The notes: generated from the letters alone by a model not told the origin. A stretch of 64,000 bases of DNA from Paludibacteraceae bacterium (GCA_045641625.1 JAZUHH010000027.1:1582-65581), one strand, 5' to 3'. Positions 4,347 to 64,000 are shown, counted from the first letter of the stretch. A program made the numbers and translations.

Positions 4347-4375
4347 ACTTATTCGCCAAAGCGTTGTTTAATTGA

Positions 4376-4939
4376 CTATACTGCAAAGTTTTCAGGGTGT
4401 CTGCCCTGGATGTTGTTGTCAATGTACCATTGCTTGATTCTTTCGATGTCCTTGTCCATTTCACCGGTAGGCACGAACGAACCGTCAATGATTATGATCT
4501 TTCTCTTGAAGTCGAGACCTGCCAGCAGAAGCGGCACATTCGCATGCTGTGAGATAAGGTAGAACCCGCGCTTCCAGTTCTTGTTTCTCTTGCGTGTACC
4601 CTCCGGAGTCACGGCAAGCTGGAACGATTCGTGGTTGTTCATCTCGTCAACAACAGCGTCAACCAGGTTGTTCTTTTTCCCTCTGTCAACACCAATTCCA
4701 CCCAAAGGTTTGATGATGAGTCCGAAAGGGAAGTCGGTCCAGAACTTTTTGATCAGGAACTTGGGCTTTATACCCAGGTCAAGGGCAGAATAGCACAGTC
4801 TGCCCACGATGAAATCCCAGTTGCTGGTGTGCGGAGCGACGCAGAAGACGCACTTGTTCGGCATCTTCTCGAGTCTGTTGTCAATGCTCCACCCGCCCAT
4901 TTTCAGGATAGCACCGCATACTTTGCTTGAAAAGGACAT
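4376..4939 (-). CDS. 1-acyl-sn-glycerol-3-phosphate / lysophospholipid acyltransferase family protein
   Basis: Acyltransferase motif I HTSNWDF (HX4D) and motif III VTPEGTR. Confidence 0.75.
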   Translation of the reverse strand: MSFSSKVCGAILKMGGWSIDNRLEKMPNKCVFCVAPHTSNWDFIVGRLCYSALDLGIKPKFLIKKFWTDFPFGLIIKPLGGIGVDRGKKNNLVDAVVDEMNNHESFQLAVTPEGTRKRNKNWKRGFYLISQHANVPLLLAGLDFKRKIIIIDGSFVPTGEMDKDIERIKQWYIDNNIQGRHPENFAV

Positions 4940-4981: not shown

Positions 4982-6064
4982 CTATTTGCTCTTGAAGTAG
5001 CGTTCGTAGCCCTCCTTGATGCTGTCGAACACGTCCTTCACGGACTCGATCTTCTCGGCTCTGTATGCGTTAGATCCGCAGAAAGCGTATCCGTTGTTCA
5101 GCTTGCCCTTGAAGGCGTTGAAAAGCGCCATGACGATGCAGTACGGTGAAGTCTCTCCGTTGCAGGTCTTGATGCAGTTCACCGCGCAAGTCTTGGGGTG
5201 CTTCTCTCCGTTGCGTACCTTGTCAAGGAACTCGTTGTTGATTGCACGTCCGGGCATTCCCACGGGGCTCTTGATGATTGTGATGTCCGACTCCTTGGCG
5301 TTGATGTACTGCTGCTTGAATGCAATGTCAGCGTCACACTCGTCAGTAGTTACAAAACGTGTGCCAAGCTGAACTGCGTCGGCACCAAGCTCCATGATTT
5401 TTGCCGCATCCTCGCCTGTATAGATGCCACCGCCTGCGATTACAGGGATGACCTTCTCGTCCTGGTACTCCTTGGCTACAGCCACAACCTCTGGAACGGT
5501 CTTCTCCAACGCGAAGTTCTCGTCGAAAATCTGTTCAGGCTTGTATCCCAGGTGTCCACCCGCCTTAGGTCCCTCGACAACGATAGCGTCAGGCAGATAG
5601 TTGTATAGCGACTTCCACTTCTGGCAGATAAGCTTTGCGGCTCTTGCCGAAGATACGATAGGAGCAAGCTTAGTCACCGAATCCTTGGAAAGGAACGAAG
5701 GCAGGTCCAATGGCAGACCAGCACCGGAAAAGATGATGTCAGCCTTCTCCTGGATAGCAGTCTTGCACAAGTCCGCATAGTTGCTCAAAGCCACCATCAC
5801 GTTGACACCGATGATTCCCTTTGACTTTTCTCTGGCTGCCTTTATCTCCTCTTTCAATCCATAGACGCTTGCCTTCAGATAGTCAGGGCTGAACTTTCTG
5901 TAAAGCAGTCCCATGCCTGCCGCAGAGATCACACCTATGCCTCCCTGGTTGGCTACTGCCGATGCCAGACCGGATAGCGAGATGCCTACACCCATTCCTC
6001 CTTGAATAATTGGCACTCTTAAATTCAAATCGCCAATCTTTATCTCTTTCATCATAATTTTCAA
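4982..6064 (-). CDS. Nitronate monooxygenase / FabK-like NAD(P)H-dependent flavin oxidoreductase
   Basis: Motifs VPIIQGGMGVGIS, EGPKAGGHLG and IPVIAGGGIYTGED are typical of the NMO/2-nitropropane dioxygenase (enoyl-ACP reductase II) TIM-barrel family. Confidence 0.7.
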   Translation of the reverse strand: MKIMMKEIKIGDLNLRVPIIQGGMGVGISLSGLASAVANQGGIGVISAAGMGLLYRKFSPDYLKASVYGLKEEIKAAREKSKGIIGVNVMVALSNYADLCKTAIQEKADIIFSGAGLPLDLPSFLSKDSVTKLAPIVSSARAAKLICQKWKSLYNYLPDAIVVEGPKAGGHLGYKPEQIFDENFALEKTVPEVVAVAKEYQDEKVIPVIAGGGIYTGEDAAKIMELGADAVQLGTRFVTTDECDADIAFKQQYINAKESDITIIKSPVGMPGRAINNEFLDKVRNGEKHPKTCAVNCIKTCNGETSPYCIVMALFNAFKGKLNNGYAFCGSNAYRAEKIESVKDVFDSIKEGYERYFKSK

Positions 6065-6229
6065 AATTTTTGCAAAAGTAATTATTTTAATTCAATTTTT
6101 GTCCTTTTTATGAAAAAGTTTGTTCGATAAACACTGTATTGTTACAAGTCGGGCAACTTGGCCCGTATAGGTCCGGATGTTGCCCGCAGTTTTGAAATTG
6201 AGCGAAAAAGCATTAACTTTGTACCCATT

Positions 6230-8182
6230 ATGGATAGACACCAAAGCATAGACGCACATTTCCAGAGACAGCAGCAGCTGTTGAAAATGGAGTATGACCA
6301 CGAGAAGCAGGCCTTTGAACAGCGCAGTAAACTGACTGAAATAGCATGGAAGGTCAAGCACGGCGTGTGCTGGTTCCCACTGACTGTGGGACGAAGCTAC
6401 TATAACGCCGTGAACCAGTTCTGTGTGGATGTATTCAGGAACGGAGGGGCATCGGCAAGCCCGGACCAGCCGAACGAAAACTCTGAGTTCGAGTATGGCA
6501 AGCCGGTGGCGTTCTTCACCCAGAGCGGACTGGGCGAGGCCAAGCCTACGGGAGTGACCGGTACGGTGAGCTATGTCGAGGACAACCGCATGGTGGTCGT
6601 GCTGAACCGTGAGGGAGACATAAACCTGCTCAAGACAAACGACATGCTTGGTGTCCAGCTCTATTTTGACGAGACAACCTATCAGCTGATGTTCTCGGCT
6701 CTGCGTTCGGTGCAGTTGGCCAAGGGCGACAGGACTGCATACCTCAGGGATCTGCTCCTAAGCCGCCAGCCTGCCGAGTTCCGTACCCTTGCGCCGATGT
6801 CATTCCCCTGGCTGAACGAAAGCCAGGAGGGAGCGGTGAACAAGGTGCTGAACGCACGCGAAGTGGCAATAGTCCACGGACCTCCGGGAACGGGCAAGAC
6901 CACAACCCTGGTCGAGGCTATTTGCGAAACACTGAACAGGGAGAACCAGATACTTGTCTGCGCACAGAGCAACATGGCTGTCGATTGGATAAGCGAACAG
7001 CTCAGCGACCGCGGTGTCAGCGTTCTGCGCATCGGAAATCCGACCAGAGTGACTGACAAGATGCTGGGATACACATACGAGCGACGTTTTGAAAGCCATC
7101 CGCTATACCACGACCTGTGGAGCGTGAGACAGGCTATACGCAATCTGCAGCAGTCCAAGAACAGCGGAAACAGACGCGAGGCGAGAGCCAAGATAGCAAA
7201 CCTGCGTGACCGTGGGACAAACCTGGAGCTCGCTATCAGACACGACCTGTTCGACCAGTGCAGAATCGTTGCCTGCACACTGACCGGAGCGGCACACAGA
7301 CTGCTCGACGGAATACGTTTCCAGAGCCTGTTCATCGACGAGGCGGCTCAGGCGCTCGAGGCTGCGTGCTGGATAGCGATACGCAAGGCTGACCGCGTGA
7401 TATTCGCCGGTGACCATTGCCAGCTGCCGCCCACGATAAAGTGCGTGGAAGCCGCAAACAAGGGGCTTGCCGAGACTCTGATGGAGCAGGTGTCGGTGAA
7501 CAAGCCGGAATGTGTCTCGTTCCTGAACCTGCAGTACAGAATGCACGAGACAATAGTGAAGTTCCCTTCGGAGTGGTTCTATGGCGGCGAACTGAAGACA
7601 AGCCCTACGGTGAAGCACCGCAACATACTCGAGTTTGACGCACCTCTGGTCTGGCTTGACACCCAGGGACTTGGGTTCGAGGAGGAGATGACCAACGACC
7701 AGAGCGGAAGGTACAACGAGGGCGAGGCACTGTTCATAGTGGAACAGCTCGAGAAGTACATCCAGAAGCTCGGAACTCAGCGAGTGAAGAACGAACGCAT
7801 AGACTTCGGTCTGATTTCCCCATACAAGAGCCAGGTGCAGAGACTGCGCAAGAAGGTCAGGTTCAGCCCGGCACTGAAGCCGGTGAGGTCTGCCATTACG
7901 GTGAACACCATTGACGGATTCCAGGGACAGGAACGTGACGTGATACTTATATCGCTGGTGCGTGCCAACGACGACGGAAACATCGGATTCCTGCGCGAGC
8001 TGAGAAGAATGAACGTGGCAATAACAAGAGCCAGAATGAAGCTGATAATAGTCGGTGACAGCGAGACTCTAACACGCCACGCATTCTACAGGAAGCTCTA
8101 CAACCACGTCCAAAGCGAGGGCAAGGTCATTGCCTTTCAACCTGAGGAGGGCAGTGGCGACAGTGAAAACAGGAGCATGTAG
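6230..8182 (+). CDS. Upf1/IGHMBP2-like SF1 helicase
   Basis: Walker A HGPPGTGKTTT, Walker B LFIDEAAQALE, then FAGDHCQLPPTI, QYRMHETI, TIDGFQGQERDVILISLVRAN and MNVAITRARMKLIIVG. Start taken at the first ATG (6230) in the frame of track ORF 6158. Confidence 0.8.
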   Translation: MDRHQSIDAHFQRQQQLLKMEYDHEKQAFEQRSKLTEIAWKVKHGVCWFPLTVGRSYYNAVNQFCVDVFRNGGASASPDQPNENSEFEYGKPVAFFTQSGLGEAKPTGVTGTVSYVEDNRMVVVLNREGDINLLKTNDMLGVQLYFDETTYQLMFSALRSVQLAKGDRTAYLRDLLLSRQPAEFRTLAPMSFPWLNESQEGAVNKVLNAREVAIVHGPPGTGKTTTLVEAICETLNRENQILVCAQSNMAVDWISEQLSDRGVSVLRIGNPTRVTDKMLGYTYERRFESHPLYHDLWSVRQAIRNLQQSKNSGNRREARAKIANLRDRGTNLELAIRHDLFDQCRIVACTLTGAAHRLLDGIRFQSLFIDEAAQALEAACWIAIRKADRVIFAGDHCQLPPTIKCVEAANKGLAETLMEQVSVNKPECVSFLNLQYRMHETIVKFPSEWFYGGELKTSPTVKHRNILEFDAPLVWLDTQGLGFEEEMTNDQSGRYNEGEALFIVEQLEKYIQKLGTQRVKNERIDFGLISPYKSQVQRLRKKVRFSPALKPVRSAITVNTIDGFQGQERDVILISLVRANDDGNIGFLRELRRMNVAITRARMKLIIVGDSETLTRHAFYRKLYNHVQSEGKVIAFQPEEGSGDSENRSM

Positions 8183-8251
8183 TGAATAAAGCAAAGGCGA
8201 GACACTTGCCTGTGCCTCGCCAATTCTATCTGTCTTTGGGGTGTCCGTTAC

Positions 8252-9346
8252 CTATTTCAGCCTGCTCTGGTACTTCTTGCTGTCTCCCAGGTACACGTTC
8301 AGCAGACCTACGCTGATGATGCTGACTCCGAACGCAAGAAGCGGGAATATACTGCAGAACGAGTCATACAGTCCGTGTCCAAGTGCAGGGATGCTTATGG
8401 CAAGGAAATACAGACCCTTGCGGTACCTTGGGTAAAGATGTGCAAAGCTGAGGAAGAAACCTGCCACAGCTGTCCAGATGGCATGTATGAACGGCAGGGT
8501 GGTCATTCGCGCTATGTTCAGATAGTATGCGTCCGCATAGCCCTGCTGTGTGTTCACGGTAAGCTGGTACTGGACTCCTTCGAATACTCCGAAGGCAAGT
8601 CCCGATATGAGTCCGTAGAACACCATAGTCTGGGGAATCATCGGCTCCTTTGCCCTCTTGAGAAGGAACAGGAGGACAAGCATCTTGCCCAGCTCCTCTG
8701 TGAAACCTACGCCAAAGACGAAACCTATGATGTTGCTCAACAGTCCGTTGCTCTGGGTGAGCATATAGAATATGTTCAAGTTGGGCAGTCCAAGCAGATC
8801 CCATATAACAATGATGACAAGCTGTGTCAGAAAGAATATCTTGAGTGTCGTGCTTGTCTTCACCTGCTTGGTCTTGTAGAACGAATAGAAGAACATCGCC
8901 CACATGCTCGAGAAGTATAGCGATATGGCATAGAACCTAAGGAAATCGCTTGGAATATATGTCACCCCTATGAGCGGGAACATACCGATTATTGTGAGCA
9001 GAAGCAGTCTTTTGTCCTTGCTCCAGGTCTCCTTCTCCAACAGCTCCTTGGGGAACAGCAGATCCTTGCCCAAACGTGATATTTGAGAGAAAATGCTGCC
9101 TTCTGACTCGACCTTGAATGGTATGTTGTTGTACTTAAGCACACTGCTTACAGTCTCGTATCTGGTGTTCTCGTCTATGTTGTCCGTGTTGGTAACCTTG
9201 TCGCAGGCCAGAGTCTTGCCTATGGTAGTCAGGCTTCTCAGGTCTTCGAGTGAGTATGGCCCGTAAGATTTGCCGTTTCTGACCACGAACAGACGGTTAG
9301 TGTTGCAGATGTCTATATTCTCGACATCGTTGCCTAATAATCCCAT
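8252..9346 (-). CDS. PrsW-family intramembrane protease with N-terminal GYF_2-like domain
   Basis: N-terminus FVVRNGKSYGPYSLEDLRSL is GYF_2/DUF4339-like. Multi-pass membrane core carries PrsW-type motifs GFTEELGK, AFGVFEG, HAIWTAVAG and HGLYD. The ATG at 9344-9346 leaves a 4-nt gap to the stop of the upstream gene (9351-9353). Confidence 0.7.
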   Translation of the reverse strand: MGLLGNDVENIDICNTNRLFVVRNGKSYGPYSLEDLRSLTTIGKTLACDKVTNTDNIDENTRYETVSSVLKYNNIPFKVESEGSIFSQISRLGKDLLFPKELLEKETWSKDKRLLLLTIIGMFPLIGVTYIPSDFLRFYAISLYFSSMWAMFFYSFYKTKQVKTSTTLKIFFLTQLVIIVIWDLLGLPNLNIFYMLTQSNGLLSNIIGFVFGVGFTEELGKMLVLLFLLKRAKEPMIPQTMVFYGLISGLAFGVFEGVQYQLTVNTQQGYADAYYLNIARMTTLPFIHAIWTAVAGFFLSFAHLYPRYRKGLYFLAISIPALGHGLYDSFCSIFPLLAFGVSIISVGLLNVYLGDSKKYQSRLK

Positions 9347-56832: not shown

Positions 56833-59800
56833 ATGATTGAAGGAATCAAAAAAGTCATTCTGCTTGGATCCGGAGCATTGAAGATCGGTCAGGCAGGAGA
56901 GTTTGACTATTCAGGTTCGCAGGCCCTTAAGGCTATGCGAGAGGAGGGTATCAGCACTGTGCTTATCAATCCTAATATCGCTACTATCCAGACTTCTGCC
57001 GGTGTTGCTGACAAGGTGTATTTCTTGCCAATCACTCCCTATTTCGTTGAGGAGGTAATCAAGAAGGAGAAGCCAGACGGCATTCTGCTTGCCTTTGGTG
57101 GACAGACTGCACTTAACTGCGGTACTGAGCTTTACAATAACGGCATTTTCGAGAAGTACGGTGTCAAGGTGCTTGGTACATCCGTAGATGCAATCATGAT
57201 TACAGAGGACCGTGACCTTTTTGTCAAGAAGCTTGATGAGATCAAGGCTCTTACTCCTAAGTCTGAGGCTGTGGAGTCTATGGAGGATGCGCTTCGTGTT
57301 GCCAACGAGATCGGTTTCCCTATCATGGTTCGCTCGGCTTACGCCCTTGGTGGACTTGGCTCTGGTGTCTGCCAGAACGAGAAGGAGTTCCGCGACCTAT
57401 GCGAAAGCGCTTTGGCTCACTCAAAGCAGATCCTTGTAGAGGAGTCGTTGAAGGGTTGGAAGGAGATCGAGTTCGAGGTTATCCGCGACAAGAACGACCA
57501 CTGCTTTACAGTAGTTCCAATGGAGAACTTCGATCCGCTTGGAATACATACAGGTGAGTCCATCGTTGTTGCTCCTATTATTTCTTTGACTCAGGAGCAG
57601 ATTACTTTCCTTCAGGAGATTGCAAAGAAGGTTGTACGCCACATCGGTATTGTCGGAGAGTGTAATATACAGTACGCATTCAACGCCCAGACTAACGACT
57701 ATCGTATCATCGAGATCAACGCTCGTTTGAGCCGTTCTTCTGCTTTGGCTTCAAAGGCTTCCGGTTATCCTTTGGCTTTCGTTGCCGCTAAGTTGGCTTT
57801 GGGTTACTCTCTTGACCAGATCGGTGAGATGGGTACTCCTAACTCGGCTTACGTTGCCCCTTCAGTGGATTATATGATCGTCAAGATACCACGTTGGGAC
57901 TTGACAAAGTTTGTAGGCGTTGACCGTGAGATCGGTACTTCAATGAAGTCGGTCGGCGAGATCATGTCTATCGGTAAGTCTTTCGAGGAGATTATCCAGA
58001 AGGGACTTCGTATGATAGGACAGGGTATGCACGGATTCGTCGGCAACAAGGACTTGGAGTTCGACGACCTTGACAAGGAACTTTCTCACCCTACAGACCT
58101 TCGTATCTTCGCCATAGCAGCTGCTCTTGAGAAGGGCTACACAGTGGAGAGAATCGAGGAGTTGACTAAGATTGACATCTGGTTCCTTAACAAGTTGAAG
58201 AATATCGTTGACTACACTAAGGTGATCTCTAAATACAAGACTATCGAGGAGATCCCTGCAGATGTGTTGCGCGAGGCTAAGCGTCTTGGATTCTCTGACT
58301 TCCAGATTGCACGCTACTGCGAGAATCCTTCGGGCAACATGGAGAAGGAGATTCTTCGTGTCCGTGCTTCTCGAAAGAAGAACAACATTCTTCCAGCGGT
58401 CAGAAGAATCAATACAGTCGCTTCCGAACATCCGGAATTGACTAACTATCTATACATGACTTACGGCGTAAACGAGCATTCGATAAGCTATGACTACAAG
58501 AACGAAAAATCAATCGTAGTCCTTGGATCGGGCGCATACCGTATCGGTTCATCCGTAGAGTTCGACTGGTGTTCTGTCAATGCTGTCCAGACTGCAAGAA
58601 AGTTGGGCTACAAGTCCATCATGATCAACTACAATCCTGAGACTGTGTCAACTGACTACGACATGTGCGACAGACTTTACTTTGACGAGTTGAGCTACGA
58701 GCGCGTGTTGGATGTCTTGGACCTAGAGACTCCTAAGGGTGTCATCGTATCAGTAGGAGGACAGATTCCAAATAACTTGGCAATGAAGCTTCACCGCCAG
58801 AATGTTCCTATCCTTGGTACTTCTCCGGTTTCTATCGACCGCGCAGAGAACCGTCACAAGTTCTCTGCAATGCTTGACCAGCTTGGCATCGACCAGCCAA
58901 GATGGAAGGAGCTTACAAGCTTCGAGGAGATCGACGCGTTCATCGACCAGGTAGGCTTCCCTGTATTGATTCGTCCATCATACGTGCTTTCAGGTGCTGC
59001 GATGAACGTATGCTACAACAAGGAGCAGATGCATACATTCCTTAAGGCTGCCGCACAGGTTTCTAAGGAGTATCCGGTAGTTGTTTCTTCGTTCATGCAG
59101 GAGACAAAGGAGATCGAGTTCGACGCTGTGGCTAAGTGCGGAGAGATTATCGAATACGCGATATCTGAGCATGTAGAGTACGCTGGTGTCCACTCTGGTG
59201 ACGCAACTATCGTATTCCCTGCACAGAAGATCTATATGGAGACTGCACGCAGAATCAAGAAGATCAGCAAGAAGATTGCTCAGGAGCTTAACATCAGCGG
59301 ACCTTTCAACATCCAGTTCCTTGCAAAGAACAACGAGGTTAAGGTTATCGAGTGTAACCTTCGTGCATCACGAAGCTTCCCATTCGTGTCTAAGGTATTG
59401 AAGAGAAACTTTATCGAGACTGCTACAAAGATTATGCTTGACGTTCCAGTCGAGACTCCGGACTCATCTACATTTGATATTGACTACGTAGGTGTTAAGG
59501 CTTCCCAGTTCTCGTTTGCCCGTCTTCACAAGGCTGACCCTGTTCTTGGAGTTGATATGTCTTCGACAGGAGAGGTTGGATGTATCGGAGCAGACTTTGA
59601 CGAGGCATTGTTGACTTCTATGATCTCTGTAGGTTATCCTATTCCAACAAAGGGTATCTTGGTGTCATCAGGAGATGTTCGTGGCAAGGTTGAACTTCTT
59701 GACGCATGCAAGATGTTGTCTGGAAAGGGTTACAAGATCTACGCTACAGAGGGCACTCAGAAGTTCTTGGGCGAGCATAGTGTCGAGGCTACTGCAGTTT

Positions 59801-60054
59801 GCTGGCCTGACGAGCAGTGTTGTGGCAAGGCAGACATCGCCAAGCTTATGGCTGACCACCAGATCGACTTGGTAATCAATGTGCCAAAGGATCAGACAAA
59901 GCGCGAGCTTACAAACGGATACAGAATCCGTCGTTCGGCAATAGATCACAACATTCCATTGATGACAAACGCACGTCTTGCAAGCGCATACATCCGTGCT
60001 TTGGTTAACAAGGGTGTGGAAGACATCAAGATCAAGACTTGGCAGGAATACTAA
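56833..60054 (+). CDS. carB: Carbamoyl-phosphate synthase large subunit
   Basis: 1073 aa with two ATP-grasp halves (GSGALKIGQAGEFDYSGSQA and GSGAYRIGSSVEFDWC) and an MGS-like C-terminal domain. Confidence 0.95.
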   Translation: MIEGIKKVILLGSGALKIGQAGEFDYSGSQALKAMREEGISTVLINPNIATIQTSAGVADKVYFLPITPYFVEEVIKKEKPDGILLAFGGQTALNCGTELYNNGIFEKYGVKVLGTSVDAIMITEDRDLFVKKLDEIKALTPKSEAVESMEDALRVANEIGFPIMVRSAYALGGLGSGVCQNEKEFRDLCESALAHSKQILVEESLKGWKEIEFEVIRDKNDHCFTVVPMENFDPLGIHTGESIVVAPIISLTQEQITFLQEIAKKVVRHIGIVGECNIQYAFNAQTNDYRIIEINARLSRSSALASKASGYPLAFVAAKLALGYSLDQIGEMGTPNSAYVAPSVDYMIVKIPRWDLTKFVGVDREIGTSMKSVGEIMSIGKSFEEIIQKGLRMIGQGMHGFVGNKDLEFDDLDKELSHPTDLRIFAIAAALEKGYTVERIEELTKIDIWFLNKLKNIVDYTKVISKYKTIEEIPADVLREAKRLGFSDFQIARYCENPSGNMEKEILRVRASRKKNNILPAVRRINTVASEHPELTNYLYMTYGVNEHSISYDYKNEKSIVVLGSGAYRIGSSVEFDWCSVNAVQTARKLGYKSIMINYNPETVSTDYDMCDRLYFDELSYERVLDVLDLETPKGVIVSVGGQIPNNLAMKLHRQNVPILGTSPVSIDRAENRHKFSAMLDQLGIDQPRWKELTSFEEIDAFIDQVGFPVLIRPSYVLSGAAMNVCYNKEQMHTFLKAAAQVSKEYPVVVSSFMQETKEIEFDAVAKCGEIIEYAISEHVEYAGVHSGDATIVFPAQKIYMETARRIKKISKKIAQELNISGPFNIQFLAKNNEVKVIECNLRASRSFPFVSKVLKRNFIETATKIMLDVPVETPDSSTFDIDYVGVKASQFSFARLHKADPVLGVDMSSTGEVGCIGADFDEALLTSMISVGYPIPTKGILVSSGDVRGKVELLDACKMLSGKGYKIYATEGTQKFLGEHSVEATAVCWPDEQCCGKADIAKLMADHQIDLVINVPKDQTKRELTNGYRIRRSAIDHNIPLMTNARLASAYIRALVNKGVEDIKIKTWQEY

Positions 60055-60133
60055 TCTTGAGAACAATAAAGACAAGGAAGTCCGTCTCGTCGAGGCGGAC
60101 TTTTTTGTTGCATTTTATGTTGAAAGGCATGGT
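59987..60133. repeat. Direct repeat copy A: functional carB 3' end (last 22 codons plus stop), terminator and about 25 bp beyond
   Basis: Aligns with 61265..61415 by eye. End coordinates are approximate. Confidence 0.85.
60078..60108 (+). terminator. Rho-independent terminator of carB
   Basis: aagtccgtct-cgtcg-aggcggactt followed by tttt. Confidence 0.75.
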
Positions 60134-60275
60134 TTGTTCTGTTAACTTTTTTATAAAACTATTTTGTAGATTTAGAAAATCTATCTATACTTGCAATAGG
60201 AACAACAAAGGAAGTTGGACTAAACGAGGATGCCGAAAACCATAGAGAGTAGGCAAGGATTTAATAATAGTGATT

Positions 60276-60683
60276 ATGGGTTATATTGTATTTATTTCTT
60301 GTTGCAGTAAAAAAGCAAAAGATCCATGTCAAGCACAATACTTATATAAAAGTCCACTTTTTAAGAAAAGTTTGGCTTATGCTCGTATGTTGACAAGTGA
60401 TGATAAAATATTTATTTTATCTGCAAAACATTATTTGATTCCTCTGAATAAAATAATATCATCTTATAATAAAACTCTTAATACTATGAGGATAGAAGAG
60501 AGAAAGGAATGGGCAGGAATAGTAAATGGTCAGATAGATGGAATTCTAAAAAAATATCAAACAGATGATATTATAGTACTGGCTGGGGGAAAATATAGGG
60601 AGTTTTTGGACTTTAAGGGCAGAACTGTCAATGTTCCATTAAAAGGAATGAGAATTGGTCAGATGTTGAAATGTTTGAAATAA
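60276..60683 (+). CDS. DUF6884-like hypothetical protein (135 aa)
   Basis: IVFISCCSKKA..YLYKSPLFKKSLAYA..IFILSAKHYLIPLN..SYNKTL matches my recollection of the DUF6884 pattern (ISCxxxK, LYxSxLF, ILSAKxGL, YD/N). Visibly AT-rich. Confidence 0.55.
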   Translation: MGYIVFISCCSKKAKDPCQAQYLYKSPLFKKSLAYARMLTSDDKIFILSAKHYLIPLNKIISSYNKTLNTMRIEERKEWAGIVNGQIDGILKKYQTDDIIVLAGGKYREFLDFKGRTVNVPLKGMRIGQMLKCLK

Positions 60684-60692
60684 ATATAGAAT

Positions 60693-61250
60693 ATGATAAA
60701 ATCAGTTAAAGACATTAGGGAGAGTGGATTCATTGGAATTGAAAAGAAACACGGTATATATAAATGGTGGTTTCGTGAAGAGTCGGTTACAACACTATTG
60801 AGTTCATTAGGATCTTATGTAGATTTTTCTAAGTTGAAATCTATAAAAGACCAACATATGATTATAAATAATCAACATTATACTTTATTGTATGTAGGTA
60901 TCGCTGCTGGTGGAAACGGAATAAGGGGCCGTTTTAAGTGGCACATTGCACAAAAACATTCTCCATCGACTATATCCAAAGGATATCTTTCTACTTTGCG
61001 TAGAACATTGATGGGATTGTTAATGGATAGAAGTACTGATACTTTCTATACATTTGGAGAAAAAAGGCTAAACGATTTTATGGATGATAATTGTTATTTG
61101 GAGTGGGAATATAAAGATATGGATAAACATTCTCTTGAATGTGAGGAATCCAAGATAATTAATGCTGGTTATTATCCTCTAAATATTCAGGGTAACAATC
61201 AGACTTCGGACCAATTGAAGGAAGAGTTAAAAAAATCAAGAAAAATATAG
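60693..61250 (+). CDS. GIY-YIG-type nuclease-domain protein (185 aa)
   Basis: GIYKWWF (GIY), LLYVGIA (YVG), IRGRFKWH (Arg), YLEWEY (Glu), YPLNIQGN (Asn). It starts 9 nt after the preceding gene. Confidence 0.6.
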   Translation: MIKSVKDIRESGFIGIEKKHGIYKWWFREESVTTLLSSLGSYVDFSKLKSIKDQHMIINNQHYTLLYVGIAAGGNGIRGRFKWHIAQKHSPSTISKGYLSTLRRTLMGLLMDRSTDTFYTFGEKRLNDFMDDNCYLEWEYKDMDKHSLECEESKIINAGYYPLNIQGNNQTSDQLKEELKKSRKI

Positions 61251-61264
61251 AATGCTTATGTAAC

Positions 61265-61415
61265 CATACATTCGTGCTTTGGTTAATAAGGGTGTGGAGG
61301 ACATCAAGACTTGGCAGGAGTACTAATCTTGAGAATCAATAAAAGACAAGGAAGTCCGTCTCGTTGAGGCGGACTTTTTTGTCTTTTTGGTGTGGTATTT
61401 TATGCTGAAAATATC
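61265..61415. repeat. Direct repeat copy B: orphan, diverged copy of the carB 3' end plus terminator
   Basis: Reads ..IRALVNKGVEDIKTWQEY* in frame. Relative to copy A the coding part has 4 substitutions, all synonymous third-position, and a 6-bp in-frame deletion. The terminator hairpin is retained with one C-to-T change. Confidence 0.85.
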
Positions 61416-61533
61416 ACCCTGTGCATTTCAGCTTTGCCTTTTTGAAAACAAGGATTGTAGTAGTGTAAAGTCAACAACATTGAAATTGTTCCATTTTTAA
61501 CATTTTGACCGTCATTTTCTTTGCGGTATGCGT

Positions 61534-61541
61534 TATTTTTG
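61534..61541 (+). promoter_or_regulatory. Bacteroidetes -7 promoter box (TAnnTTTG)
   Basis: tatttttg, 78 nt upstream of the ATG at 61619. Confidence 0.35.
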
Positions 61542-61618
61542 CCGACCTGGCCTTTAATGTTTGTAACATCAAACAAAAACAAGGCATTTTTAATATTAAA
61601 TTTAAGGAGGGTTAAGCT

Positions 61619-63208
61619 ATGGGAATTTCTAAATCAAAATTTTTAGCATTTTGCCAGTGTCCAAAGAGATTATGGCTAGAAGTAAACAAACCGGGAGAGG
61701 CAATTGTTGATTCGTTGGCTATGGCTCGTTTTAATACGGGCAATGTTGTCGGAGATTTGGCTATGGGCTATTTCGGAGACTATATTGATGTTACAACGAC
61801 TAAAATTGATTCTAGTGGCAATGAAGTTTTGGATTTGAATAAGATGTTATCTGCCACATCACATCTAATAAAGACAGGTAGCGGAGTAGATAACATCTGT
61901 GAAGCTTCGTTCTCGTATGATGGAACTTATTGTGCTGTTGATATTCTGCATCGCAGAAGCAAAGGCGGTGACAAGTTCGATATTTTCGAGGTAAAGAGCT
62001 CTACATGGAAAGATGGCGACAAGTCAAATAAAGGAGGGAAAAAGAATGTCTATATAGACGACTTGGCTTGTCAGGCGTATGTGCTTATGAAATGCGGTGT
62101 GAAAGTGGAAAAGTACTACACACTTGTATTGAATTCCGAGTATGTCTATGACGGCAAGACAGATAGTAATGGAAATCCAAAGTACAACTTGAAAAAACTG
62201 TTTCATAAGACAGACTTGACCAAAGAGGTTAAGGAGAGAATGAAGACTGTTGAACGAGAAATAGAGTTGGCAAATTATGTGCTTAATTCAAAGAATGAAA
62301 TGGATTCGCATCTAGGGACTCGCTGCAAACATCCGTATGACTGTGCTTTCGCAGAGTATTGCAAGAAATACAAGGGTGTTCCGAATTCCTCGGTGTTCTC
62401 TATCGGTGGAGTGAGGTCTTTTGACTTGTATGAAAAAGGTGTCGTTACATACGAAGAGTACTTGAAGCACATTACTGATTTGGGTAATGACAAATGTCTT
62501 TCCCAGATACGTCAGCTTGATGCCGAGATGTCAGGGAAAAAAGATGTTTTCCATGACGACAGCAAAATAAAAGAGTTCCTGGATTCATTGACTTTTCCTC
62601 TCTATTTCTTGGATTTTGAGACTATTCAGCCTGCGTTGCCAATTTACAAGAATTCCAGTCCTAACAATCAGATTCCTTTCCAGTATTCCCTTCACTATAT
62701 TGATGAGTTGGGAGGTAAGCTTTACCATAAGGAGTTCCTGGCTGTTTCTGACGGCTCAGATCCACGTCGTGCCTTGGCAGAGCAACTTGTGAAAGATATT
62801 CCCGCAAATGCTCGTGTTGTCGCATACAACAAGGAGTTTGAATGTGGAAGGATTGCCGAGCTGGCAGTTTTGTATCCTGATTTGCATGATCATTTGACTA
62901 GCATACATGGAAATATCCAAGATTTGATGCTCCCTTTTAAGGATGGTGATTGCTATCATATTGATATGCGTGGGTCTTATTCTATCAAAGCCGTGCTTCC
63001 TGCATTGTTCCCGAATGACCCAGAACTAGACTATTCAAAATTGCCGAGTGTTCATAATGGAGGAGAGGCTATGACATTGTTTCCAAAAACCAAGGATATG
63101 TCTAGTGCAGAGCAGAAAGAGGCGCGTGATTCATTGCTTGCCTATTGCAAACTTGACACATTGGCAATGGTTCGTGTTTGGGAGAAACTGACAGAATTAT
63201 CAAAATGA
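61619..63208 (+). CDS. DUF2779-like protein: N-terminal PD-(D/E)XK (Cas4-like) domain plus C-terminal DEDD-like exonuclease fold
   Basis: SKFLAFCQCPKRLWLE is the characteristic DUF2779 start. Also AVDILHR..FDIFEVKSS (D..ExK) and LYFLDFETIQPALP / AYNKEFECGRI. Confidence 0.65.
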   Translation: MGISKSKFLAFCQCPKRLWLEVNKPGEAIVDSLAMARFNTGNVVGDLAMGYFGDYIDVTTTKIDSSGNEVLDLNKMLSATSHLIKTGSGVDNICEASFSYDGTYCAVDILHRRSKGGDKFDIFEVKSSTWKDGDKSNKGGKKNVYIDDLACQAYVLMKCGVKVEKYYTLVLNSEYVYDGKTDSNGNPKYNLKKLFHKTDLTKEVKERMKTVEREIELANYVLNSKNEMDSHLGTRCKHPYDCAFAEYCKKYKGVPNSSVFSIGGVRSFDLYEKGVVTYEEYLKHITDLGNDKCLSQIRQLDAEMSGKKDVFHDDSKIKEFLDSLTFPLYFLDFETIQPALPIYKNSSPNNQIPFQYSLHYIDELGGKLYHKEFLAVSDGSDPRRALAEQLVKDIPANARVVAYNKEFECGRIAELAVLYPDLHDHLTSIHGNIQDLMLPFKDGDCYHIDMRGSYSIKAVLPALFPNDPELDYSKLPSVHNGGEAMTLFPKTKDMSSAEQKEARDSLLAYCKLDTLAMVRVWEKLTELSK

Positions 63209-63300
63209 CTTATGTATAAACACATTTAGATTTGTTTCAACTCACTCCTCTGCTTTTTGTAGAGAGTGAGATAAGTCTAAAATCTTAAAAAATAAGAATT

Positions 63301-64000
63301 ATGAAAGTAATTAATTTAAATTCTAAGTTCGATCTTACTAAGGTTCAGATCGATTTCGCTGAGACTATAATGTCTTGGTATTCTAGAGATGAACACAATT
63401 CTTATGAGTTTGACTTCAATTTCCTAATGGATAAGATACCAGTGTTCCTAATAAATGAGGACACATTGAAAGTTTGGGAGCGAGAAAACCGCAAGGAATA
63501 TCAGGATGAGAATAGAGAAGAACGACGCCTTGCAACAGAATGGCTCGGCTTGTATATGTCGAAGTGTAACATATTGTCTGTTAAGCATCCTGTTATAGCA
63601 CTTTGCCCTGAGCGTATCGTTGATAGTGTCAGAAATGAAAAGGAACTTTGCTGGCTTGTGGCGAAAGTTCTTATTCATGAATTCTCTCATGCCGCGATGG
63701 ACAAGTCCGACTACGGAATTTTTGATAAGTTCCATGATTGGATGGAGGAACCAATGGCAAATCTTTTGACACTTAGCGTGGTGGAATGGTATGAAGGAGA
63801 ATGGCGCCATTCCAATTATCATTGCTATTCTCAGTTTGGAACATCGTCTGCTTTGACTATTGATGGAGATGTGTATGACGCTAGAGATTTTTATGATTTC
63901 GTATTGAACTTTGTTCGCAGTCAGCCGGACAACTATAGGATTGCGGCAGATCTGCATACGGAGGGTTTGTTTCATGCTAAGAAATGCGATGACTGGGCTC
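63301..64000 (+). CDS. Hypothetical HExxH (zinc-metallopeptidase-like motif) protein; partial, runs off the right window edge
   Basis: Missing from the ORF track because it is open-ended. The ATG at 63301 reads stop-free to 64000 (MKVINLNSKFDL...). It contains VLIHEFSHAAMD. Confidence 0.55.
   Translation, partial: MKVINLNSKFDLTKVQIDFAETIMSWYSRDEHNSYEFDFNFLMDKIPVFLINEDTLKVWERENRKEYQDENREERRLATEWLGLYMSKCNILSVKHPVIALCPERIVDSVRNEKELCWLVAKVLIHEFSHAAMDKSDYGIFDKFHDWMEEPMANLLTLSVVEWYEGEWRHSNYHCYSQFGTSSALTIDGDVYDARDFYDFVLNFVRSQPDNYRIAADLHTEGLFHAKKCDDWA

Follow-up and report, generated by a model that had tools for sequence, protein, structure and literature searches.

Insertion with long target duplication was reportedly described for restriction-modification (RM) gene units by Nobusato et al. 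in 2000. In Furuta et al. (2010; PMC2853133), RM units inserted in this way are accompanied by repeats of 46–423 base pairs (bp) that sometimes overlap the 3′ end of a gene, and the same class comprises inserts of low guanine-cytosine (GC) content without mobility genes, with one-copy empty sites and with RM types I–IV. Double-strand breakage is suspected there as the common factor, and an excess of flanking repeats is reported around nuclease-encoding RM units. Here we describe a locus of comparable anatomy in a 64,000-nucleotide (nt) stretch of DNA from a Paludibacteraceae bacterium (GCA_045641625.1, JAZUHH010000027.1:1582-65581), the whole of which we call the window. It consists of a two-gene cassette, encoding a DUF6884 protein and a GIY_YIG_2 nuclease, that lies behind carB and is flanked by a diverged duplicate of the carB 3′ end. 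With moderate confidence, we hypothesize that the cassette is an accessory operon of a YaaA/DpdC-like and a GIY_YIG_2 protein, which is mobile together with a carB tail by homologous recombination and acts in defence as a reader coupled to a nuclease.

The duplicated carB 3′ end and the transfer of the cassette

The initial annotation of this DNA had noted that the end of carB and its terminator (copy T_L) recur behind the cassette as an orphan (copy T_R). The recurrence was recovered by a repeat search (59987–60031/61265–61309, 93%; 60031–60063/61303–61335, 97%; 60068–60108/61342–61382, 98%), by blastn of the left against the right flank (124 nt, 89.5%, E = 7e-43), and by patterns of the terminator core and of the carB end, each of which occurs in two copies in the 64-kb window, where shuffled sequences give an expectation of 0. 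The repeat is about 140–150 nt long. Of the span originally assigned to it (59987–60133 and 61265–61415), the starts were correct and the ends too distant, as homology stops at 60125 and 61410, after ...ATTTTATGYTGAAA, and native downstream DNA begins at 61411. On the 5′ side, weak homology continues for a few nt beyond 61265, and AAGCGCATACATCC is kept in the related contig L002.

The orphan copy still reads in frame (P-YIRALVNKGVEDIKTWQEY*), its frame being shut upstream by an in-frame TAA at 61261–61263, and it starts from 61265, 14 nt after the last stop codon of the cassette (61248–61250), as had been noted. Also as described before, its coding part differs from that of T_L by four substitutions (ATC/ATT, AAC/AAT, GAA/GAG, and GAA/GAG), all of them synonymous and in the third position, and by the in-frame lack of one ATCAAG unit (6 bp) of the ATCAAGATCAAG tandem. 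The chance that four out of four substitutions are synonymous is 0.0013 if all substitutions are equally likely, and 0.012 if only transitions are considered. The terminator hairpin is preserved, since both copies are called by the terminator scan, and the two hairpins differ by one loop base. Because the differences are synonymous only, the sequences support the earlier proposal that T_L and T_R come from different functional carB alleles, and variants of the same kinds are seen at the functional carB ends of related genomes. Only the orphan of the window has the 6-bp deletion, with both ATCAAG units present in the orphans of X1, L001, and L004, and the orphan of L001 has one non-synonymous change; both fit the slow decay of a non-coding fossil. 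The identity of the target gene is backed by CPSase/ATP-grasp Pfam families on the carB orthologs of L001 and L004, and CarB of the window is 97.8% identical in amino acids to that of L001.

An assembly artefact, which was a concern for a repeat of this kind, is ruled out by the recurrence of the same carB-cassette-orphan layout in independent assemblies. It is found in the NCBI metagenome-assembled genome (MAG) 'Paludibacteraceae bacterium Horse_feces84' (L001/L009), in Logan contigs of other runs (X1, at an even depth of 46–55x), and in a second species, on contigs from ENA, JGI, and NCBI (L004–L010, L018).

Comparison of these genomes bears out the view that the cassette has been transferred between strains along with a piece of carB. 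A 2051-nt contig of run X4 has an empty site: it joins 60030 to 61303 and thus consists of carB, one copy of the repeat, and the region with a DUF2779 gene; it departs from the sequence of the window after 60125, which places the first base of the cassette at 60126. No further empty sites were obtained from exact-protein look-ups of the DUF1294 neighbour. L001 shares the gene order of the window, and in this comparison carB and the genes upstream of it are 78–96% identical (mostly 85–92%, with carB of this MAG at only about 89%), whereas the cassette (60123–61172) is 99–100% identical, and the step in identity sits at the carB terminator. The corresponding values for X1 are 89.8% for carB and 98.9% for the cassette. 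L002 represents a third background, in which a cassette with 98% identity follows a different carB terminator. In the second species ('Bacteroidales bacterium SIG116'), which has an epimerase-like gene upstream and a GH16 gene downstream, a relative with 74–78% protein identity lies directly behind carB and is again followed by an orphan carB tail and terminator. There the orphan is 84% (carB tail) and 97% (terminator) identical to the functional copy, and it is identical in seven contigs, whereas the functional end varies; cassette-free strains of this second lineage are also present (L016, L019, and L021). The joint between cassette and orphan, AAAAATATAGAATGCTTATGTAA, is the same in every lineage, although in L004 it is interrupted by a 181-nt insert with 19-nt inverted ends that resembles a miniature inverted-repeat transposable element (MITE). 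Therefore, the joint would have arisen once and been inherited or transferred as a block.

The distribution of differences between the copies bears on how the insertion took place. The empty X4 allele, reconstructed from the listed differences, is 96% identical to T_R and 93% to T_L. In the comparison of carB 3′ ends across strains, which had been suggested in order to see which copy matches the resident lineage, the empty allele is thus nearer to the orphan than to the functional copies. The untranslated region (UTR) and the post-terminator stretch of X4 match T_R, and the variant of both found in T_L is linked to the left end of the cassette in the window, L001, and L003. Such a mosaic is the pattern expected if a block of cassette and foreign tail recombined with a resident tail, an event after which the left copy would run from resident to foreign sequence and the right copy from foreign to resident. 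Where the switch lies varies between genomes: in the window, the UTR variant GAGAAC--AAT is confined to T_L, whereas L001 has it twice, and in the occupied allele of X3 the post-terminator stretch of T_L is of the empty type. No recombinase, transposase, or integrase domain was found in the unit by inspection of its open reading frames (ORFs), of which there are only two, and by Pfam. Because the switch points vary, the homology extends with scattered differences over ~140 nt, and no recombinase is encoded, the sequences favour homologous recombination. Of the two routes considered in the initial annotation, insertion driven by homology is therefore preferred to site-specific insertion. A fresh target-site duplication at each transfer is excluded, as cassettes that differ by <1% are flanked by repeats that differ by 9–10%.

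Taken together, we propose the following model. The operon sits in a variable region that starts just behind the carB terminator, and its right end is permanently linked to a fossil carB tail of ~150 nt. One ancient event would have joined the end of the cassette to the start of this segment. Since then, homologous recombination at the conserved carB 3′ end and terminator would have inserted cassette and carB tail into related Bacteroidales genomes, or exchanged them between such genomes, either through Campbell-type integration of a looped-out circle or through a double crossover, the products of which would be identical. The outcome would be a diverged direct repeat that leaves the functional carB whole, with its terminator, and supplies the cassette with a second one. 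This model is one of several mechanisms that might give such an anatomy, and the data do not contradict it. The spare carB tail accompanies the unit from one gut Bacteroidales species to another and probably serves as its homology arm. If so, the locus would be a multi-genome example, complete with empty sites, of a recombinase-free cassette that spreads between species and drags along a piece of carB as its landing pad.

A similar anatomy is seen at another locus. In a different Paludibacteraceae lineage (L025–L028), a relative with 40% protein identity lies between a CLC-channel gene and a helix-turn-helix (HTH) gene, and is flanked by direct repeats of ~190 nt with 76–89% identity (4352–4540 and 5931–6127), in the left copy of which the 5′ end of the HTH gene survives as a truncated remnant. 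We regard this locus as a second, independent case.

The two proteins and their coupling

The initial annotation described the DUF6884 partner as belonging to a family without known function, a statement that is now outdated. The protein, whose 135-amino acid (aa) form is also called in L001, matches Pfam PF21818 (E = 1.3e-38), PADLOC PDC-M57A (3e-42), and phrog_5935. The Pfam authors defined the family motifs CxxxK and LSAxxG, related DUF6884 to YaaA, and modelled a flipped base in the pocket (PMC11701544). Among the invariant residues are C11, K15, S51, A52, Y66, and Y109, with C11-x3-K15 and L50-S51-A52 invariant as motifs, and the final G of LSAxxG is replaced by Y in the window (LSAKHY). 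An AlphaFold (AF2) model with a predicted local distance difference test (pLDDT) score of 89.8 has the YaaA 'cantaloupe' fold, its only confident match in the PDB being E. coli YaaA (5caj_A; probability 1.00, E = 1.1e-3, template modelling score 0.63 on the query). Further, the DUF6884 half of a natural fusion protein, P0042, matches the PADLOC models for DpdC (best 2e-6), a member of the DUF328/YaaA family by which dPreQ0 in DNA is converted to dADG. Based on this fold match, the DpdC profile match, and the model of the Pfam authors, the DUF6884 protein is a putative YaaA/DpdC-like, DNA-binding, base-flipping protein.

For the second gene, the earlier assignment to the GIY-YIG nucleases is accepted by profile hidden Markov models. 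The protein matches PF20815 (GIY_YIG_2) with a score of 96.7 bits (cut-off, 22.4 bits; E = 1.7e-27), and the canonical PF01541 is matched by 5 of 26 GIY_YIG_2 relatives (best 9.4e-5). Y23 (of GIY), Y67-x-G69 (of YIG), R80, H84, E152, and N164 are invariant in 26 sequences, and we take their catalytic roles to be those of the corresponding residues in I-TevI and UvrC. The AF2 model (pLDDT 92.9) shows the expected order of strand, strand, helix, strand, and helix, with two insertions. A sequence search of the PDB with the GIY_YIG_2 profile gave no useful match, and an NCBIfam search of the cassette gave no lead.

Both genes occur together widely. The GIY_YIG_2 family has 681 cluster representatives (E ≤ 1e-3, among 1.84 billion proteins), and DUF6884 and GIY_YIG_2 are adjacent in most of the other loci examined. 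The DUF6884 gene is immediately upstream, often overlapping, in the carB-linked loci, in four Fibrobacter MAGs, in a Muribaculaceae MAG, and in three further Bacteroidales locus types; at the L029 locus, no DUF6884 gene was called beside GIY_YIG_2. Fusions of DUF6884 or YaaA-like domains with GIY_YIG_2 were found in 8 of 10 long family members scanned, in both orders, and also in P0042. Because the two parts are fused in many genomes, the sequences suggest a single enzyme, one part of which reads DNA while the other cuts it. A side observation concerns P0195 (594 aa), a fusion of DUF1643, GIY_YIG_2, and DUF6884, whose extra domain may hint at the substrate.

The possibility that the pair is always found behind carB was rejected: this linkage is confined to one clade, and the Fibrobacter, Muribaculaceae, and other Bacteroidales loci are unrelated variable regions. 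The setting is defence-like, in that the neighbours recorded in other loci include PDC-S01 AAA_14/DUF4143, SLFN/AlbA_2, HSDR_N_2, PDDEXK_4, HipA, and ParE. Searches of phage and plasmid collections found no relatives, and IMG/VR held only solitary relatives of 27–29% identity without DUF6884. Beside the Fibrobacter cassette, four consecutive ORFs of ~240 aa (L011:1867–4860, minus strand), one of them with a DNA_pol3_finger match, resemble dnaE fragments, that is, a broken gene or a frameshifted MAG.

With respect to function, the DUF6884 protein would bind DNA and inspect a flipped base, modified or damaged, in its Cys/Lys pocket, and the GIY-YIG part would then cut. Our best guess from the domains is that the pair is a type-IV-restriction-like or other nuclease directed against phages or mobile genetic elements. 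A role in defence fits because the DUF6884 protein is a PADLOC candidate match and because of the island contexts.

Layout of the cassette and the neighbouring DNA

The features of the locus are listed in Table 1. As had been noted, the DNA between the two copies is AT-rich: the insert (60126–61264), a two-gene operon of 1.14 kb, has a GC content of 28–34% compared with 45–50% in carB. The consensus of Bacteroidetes promoters is TTTG/TAnnTTTG, and the 'tatacttg' picked out in the initial annotation corresponds to the downstream element of a predicted promoter-like site of this type. The 5′ leader of the cassette is conserved across loci and contains a DUF805b-like RNA motif (RF02914), which scores 20.3 bits in the window (E = 0.01, below the gathering threshold (GA) of 35.6), 37.7 bits in L004 (5526–5558, above GA), 29.4 bits in L025 (6179–6210), and 24.5 bits in L002 (199–231). 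Behind carB in L017 and L020, another cargo gene follows this leader, with even the first codons shared; in L025, the motif lies in front of the native gene that comes after the right repeat.

Table 1. Features of the cassette locus, with positions counted from the first letter of the window.
Feature	Position	Strand	Description
carB (carbamoyl-phosphate synthase large subunit)	56833..60054	+	ORF, 1073 aa; target gene
Left copy T_L	59987..60125	+	Last 65 coding nt of carB, stop, 3′ UTR, terminator, and ~16 nt more
carB intrinsic terminator hairpin	60071..60109	+	Terminator scan
Promoter-like site, Bacteroidetes type	60163..60193	+	TTTG (60163–60166), 19 nt, TATACTTG (60186–60193); read from sequence
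DUF805b-like RNA motif, 5′ leader of cassette	60223..60255	+	Rfam RF02914
DUF6884 gene	60276..60683	+	135 aa from ATG at 60276; ORF opens with GTG at 60270
GIY_YIG_2 nuclease gene	60693..61250	+	185 aa; 9 nt after DUF6884 stop
Cassette-orphan junction AATGCTTATGTAAC	61251..61264	+	Alignment of window, L001, L002, L003, and L004
Right copy T_R (orphan)	61265..61410	+	carB 3′ end, stop, UTR, terminator, and ~25 nt
Terminator hairpin of orphan copy	61343..61385	+	Terminator scan; predicted to act as cassette terminator
DUF2779 gene	61619..63208	+	529 aa; Pfam PF11074, 6e-42; neighbour, outside the cassette

A variable hotspot begins right after the carB terminator, where other strains have a 224-aa ORF, a PDC-S01 AAA_14/DUF4143 ATPase, an SLFN/AlbA_2 protein, or a leucine-rich repeat (LRR) protein. 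The genome background is a mosaic of patches with 85–98% identity. The 224-aa ORF (L020:3111–3785, also in L017) occupies the position of the cassette behind the same leader and has no Pfam or PADLOC match. Paired palindromic repeats of 25–32 nt (TTTTGTTCAGTATACTGAACAAAAT / TTGTTCATCATACTGAATAAAAT) flank the AAA_14/DUF4143 (PDC-S01) ATPase gene (L020:4036–4128 and 5390–5450; L019:4120–4216 and 5474–5538), and are also found after the orphan terminator in L004 (6926–6983). In the same contig, the MITE-like insert (L004:6576–6756) lies between the GIY-YIG stop and the orphan, has a perfect internal hairpin of 16 nt, and is restricted to the second lineage. Over 9 kb, L004 and L006 differ only in two patches, one at the carB end and UTR (89–93% identity) and one inside DUF6884 (83%), and are otherwise 100% identical. 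Within the carB C-terminus itself, a short hypervariable patch is located between conserved blocks and reads VNKGV, TIKSM, SIKSMA, SIKSMS, or MSKSI (window 60000–60020, ..ALVNKGVED..; L004:5140–5160 and equivalents).

Downstream of the orphan, the DUF2779 protein has a weakly Cas4-like N-terminus (PADLOC Cas4, 1.2e-3) and a UU173-family match. Its gene directly follows carB in the empty-site allele of X4, and in X6 the DUF2779 segment stands behind unrelated DNA, with a boundary at about 61409. This segment may be separate mobile or defence-like cargo. In L001, the DUF2779 gene matches the protein of the window in two frames near its start (7356–7499 and 7373–8941), suggesting a frameshift or a different start.

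Alternative explanations and comparison with known systems

It is conceivable, but in our view rather unlikely, that the pair is cargo carried passively at a recombination hotspot, without contributing to its own movement, and that the duplication was a one-off illegitimate insertion later carried by ordinary recombination. The varied cargo behind carB (the LRR protein, the 224-aa ORF, the PDC-S01 ATPase, SLFN/AlbA_2, and DUF2779), the other context of the DUF2779 segment in X6 with its boundary at about 61409, the mosaic background, and the lack of repeats at most family loci are all consistent with this explanation, and the one shared junction implies a single duplication event. However, it does not account for the second, independent long duplication around a distant relative (L025), nor for an orphan that stays recognizable and in frame over a cassette divergence of 13% at the nucleotide level, and flanking repeats are reported in PMC2853133 to be in excess around RM units, which encode nucleases. 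The L025 case and this excess together hint that the nuclease contributes. Distinctly unlikely, in turn, is a free-standing homing cassette, in which the GIY-YIG nuclease, guided by DUF6884, would cut empty carB ends, and the occupied allele would be copied in with the carB tail as repair template. GIY-YIG proteins are a classical homing-nuclease family, and this membership speaks for homing, as do the presence of the cassette at one conserved target in no fewer than three carB backgrounds and two species, the divergent patch exactly at the carB 3′ end in otherwise identical strains (L004 and L006), the local hypervariability of the carB C-terminus, and the phage or chlorovirus endonucleases among which the best viral fold matches are found. 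By contrast, every short stretch of the empty allele survives in T_L or T_R, both ends of the empty site are intact, and, except for one X4-specific base, at least one of the two copies agrees with the empty allele at every position. Because the duplication retains all short stretches of the empty allele, insertion destroys no recognition site, and homing in its classical form is disfavoured on these grounds. Furthermore, a left co-conversion tract is missing (87% identity within 150 nt of the cassette), the phage and plasmid collections hold no relatives, most family members are located in unrelated variable loci without repeats, and the protein has no extra DNA-binding domain of the I-TevI type.

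A small integrative element, with the carB tails as attL and attR and an integrase acting in trans (similar to a cis-mobilizable element, CIME), is very improbable. Direct repeats overlap gene 3′ ends in many islands, as they do here, and the downstream segment is also bounded at the end of the repeat. However, neither the unit nor the following 2.6 kb encodes an integrase (ORFs and Pfam), a third repeat copy is absent from the 64-kb window, the mosaic boundaries differ between the window and L001 and leave no fixed core, and the homology covers ~140 nt with scattered differences. An att/integrase element of the site-specific kind is thus rejected for want of a recombinase and of a fixed crossover core. 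We consider it equally far-fetched that the two genes form a toxin-antitoxin (TA) or addiction pair, with a GIY-YIG toxin and a DUF6884 antitoxin or the reverse. The genes are small and tightly packed or overlapping, and TA genes (HipA, ParE) neighbour some of the loci, but frequent fusion in both orders is atypical of TA pairs, and DUF6884 has conserved enzyme-like motifs.

Several results weigh against a mobile defence operon with a carB tail, the explanation that we prefer. The evidence for mobility was drawn from assembled contigs. The downstream segment (61411–64000) is 98–99% identical to L001, X1, and X4, compared with about 85–90% elsewhere (about 88% as a single figure), and what was exchanged recently may therefore be a longer recombination tract ending in the conserved carB tail rather than the cassette alone. 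Between the window and the L004 lineage, the cassette (87% nt identity) and carB (86%) are about equally diverged, so that this deep split could reflect vertical inheritance. No flanking repeats were found around the pair in seven other locus types, and therefore the duplication is not an obligatory product of the pair family. As to function, Foldseek with the GIY_YIG_2 model gave no match in the PDB (best E = 1.7) and only weak matches in BFVD, led by phage endonucleases and GIY-YIG proteins (probability 0.94, E about 0.1). Neither the GIY_YIG_2 protein nor its relatives had a PADLOC match (E ≤ 1), and a role in DNA repair is equally compatible with the domains.

A further-reaching version of the same idea, which we regard as unlikely, is that the locus is a self-propagating nuclease cassette with the carB end as a portable homology arm, whose own nuclease makes the break or kills cells from which the cassette is lost, and that it represents a new YaaA/DpdC-like reader-nuclease type of restriction. 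If this were true, every genome that has a similar carB would be open to the cassette regardless of the DNA downstream, its movement would be related to homing but would need neither recombinase nor intron, and there would be a mechanistic explanation for insertion with long target duplication. Irrespective of this version, the compact, coupled, and uncharacterized pair is a candidate new defence or DNA-surveillance system, and it could inform the function of the wider YaaA/DUF328/DUF6884 fold.

Among known systems, the GIY-YIG homing genes (phage T4 seg and the I-TevI family) share with the cassette the catalytic superfamily, a position beside a conserved gene, and a patchy presence. The cassette differs from them in leaving its target undisrupted, in lacking phage or plasmid relatives and appended DNA-binding modules, and in having an obligatory DUF6884 partner. 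Of the two components of PDC-M57, component A is matched (3e-42), whereas the second gene is without a PADLOC match, the partner here differing from whatever defines PDC-M57B. The Dpd system is linked to the pair by the match of the P0042 DUF6884 domain to DpdC, by the match of the window model to YaaA, and by the action of DpdC on a base in DNA. However, no DpdC match is reported for the DUF6884 protein of the window itself, dpdA and dpdB are absent nearby, and the DUF6884 protein is shorter and separate, with CxxxK and LSA motifs of its own. The logic of a reader and a nuclease, in separate or fused parts and borne as an accessory on islands, is that of type IV restriction, a likeness drawn from the domains only; the putative reader here would have a YaaA/DUF328-like fold and not an SRA, EVE, or YTH domain.

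The closest resemblance in anatomy is to insertion with long target duplication, as described in PMC2853133. In both, a small nuclease unit without transposase or integrase and of lower GC content than its host lies between long direct repeats (~140 bp here) that overlap the 3′ end of a gene, and a one-copy empty site is known. Furuta et al. require a duplication of >30 bp aligned to a single-copy empty site, which X4 provides, and an insert of <20 kb without mobility genes, here about 1.28 kb with two ORFs. They also require both R and M homologs, and this locus has no methyltransferase or recognized RM component. The repeats are 9–16% diverged, the right copy travels across species with the unit, and Bacteroidales are not among the taxa named for such insertions in the available portion of that paper. 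By analogy, the unit thus appears to work like the long-target-duplication class, although it is not an RM unit by that definition, and it would extend this poorly understood route beyond RM genes and into the gut Bacteroidales.

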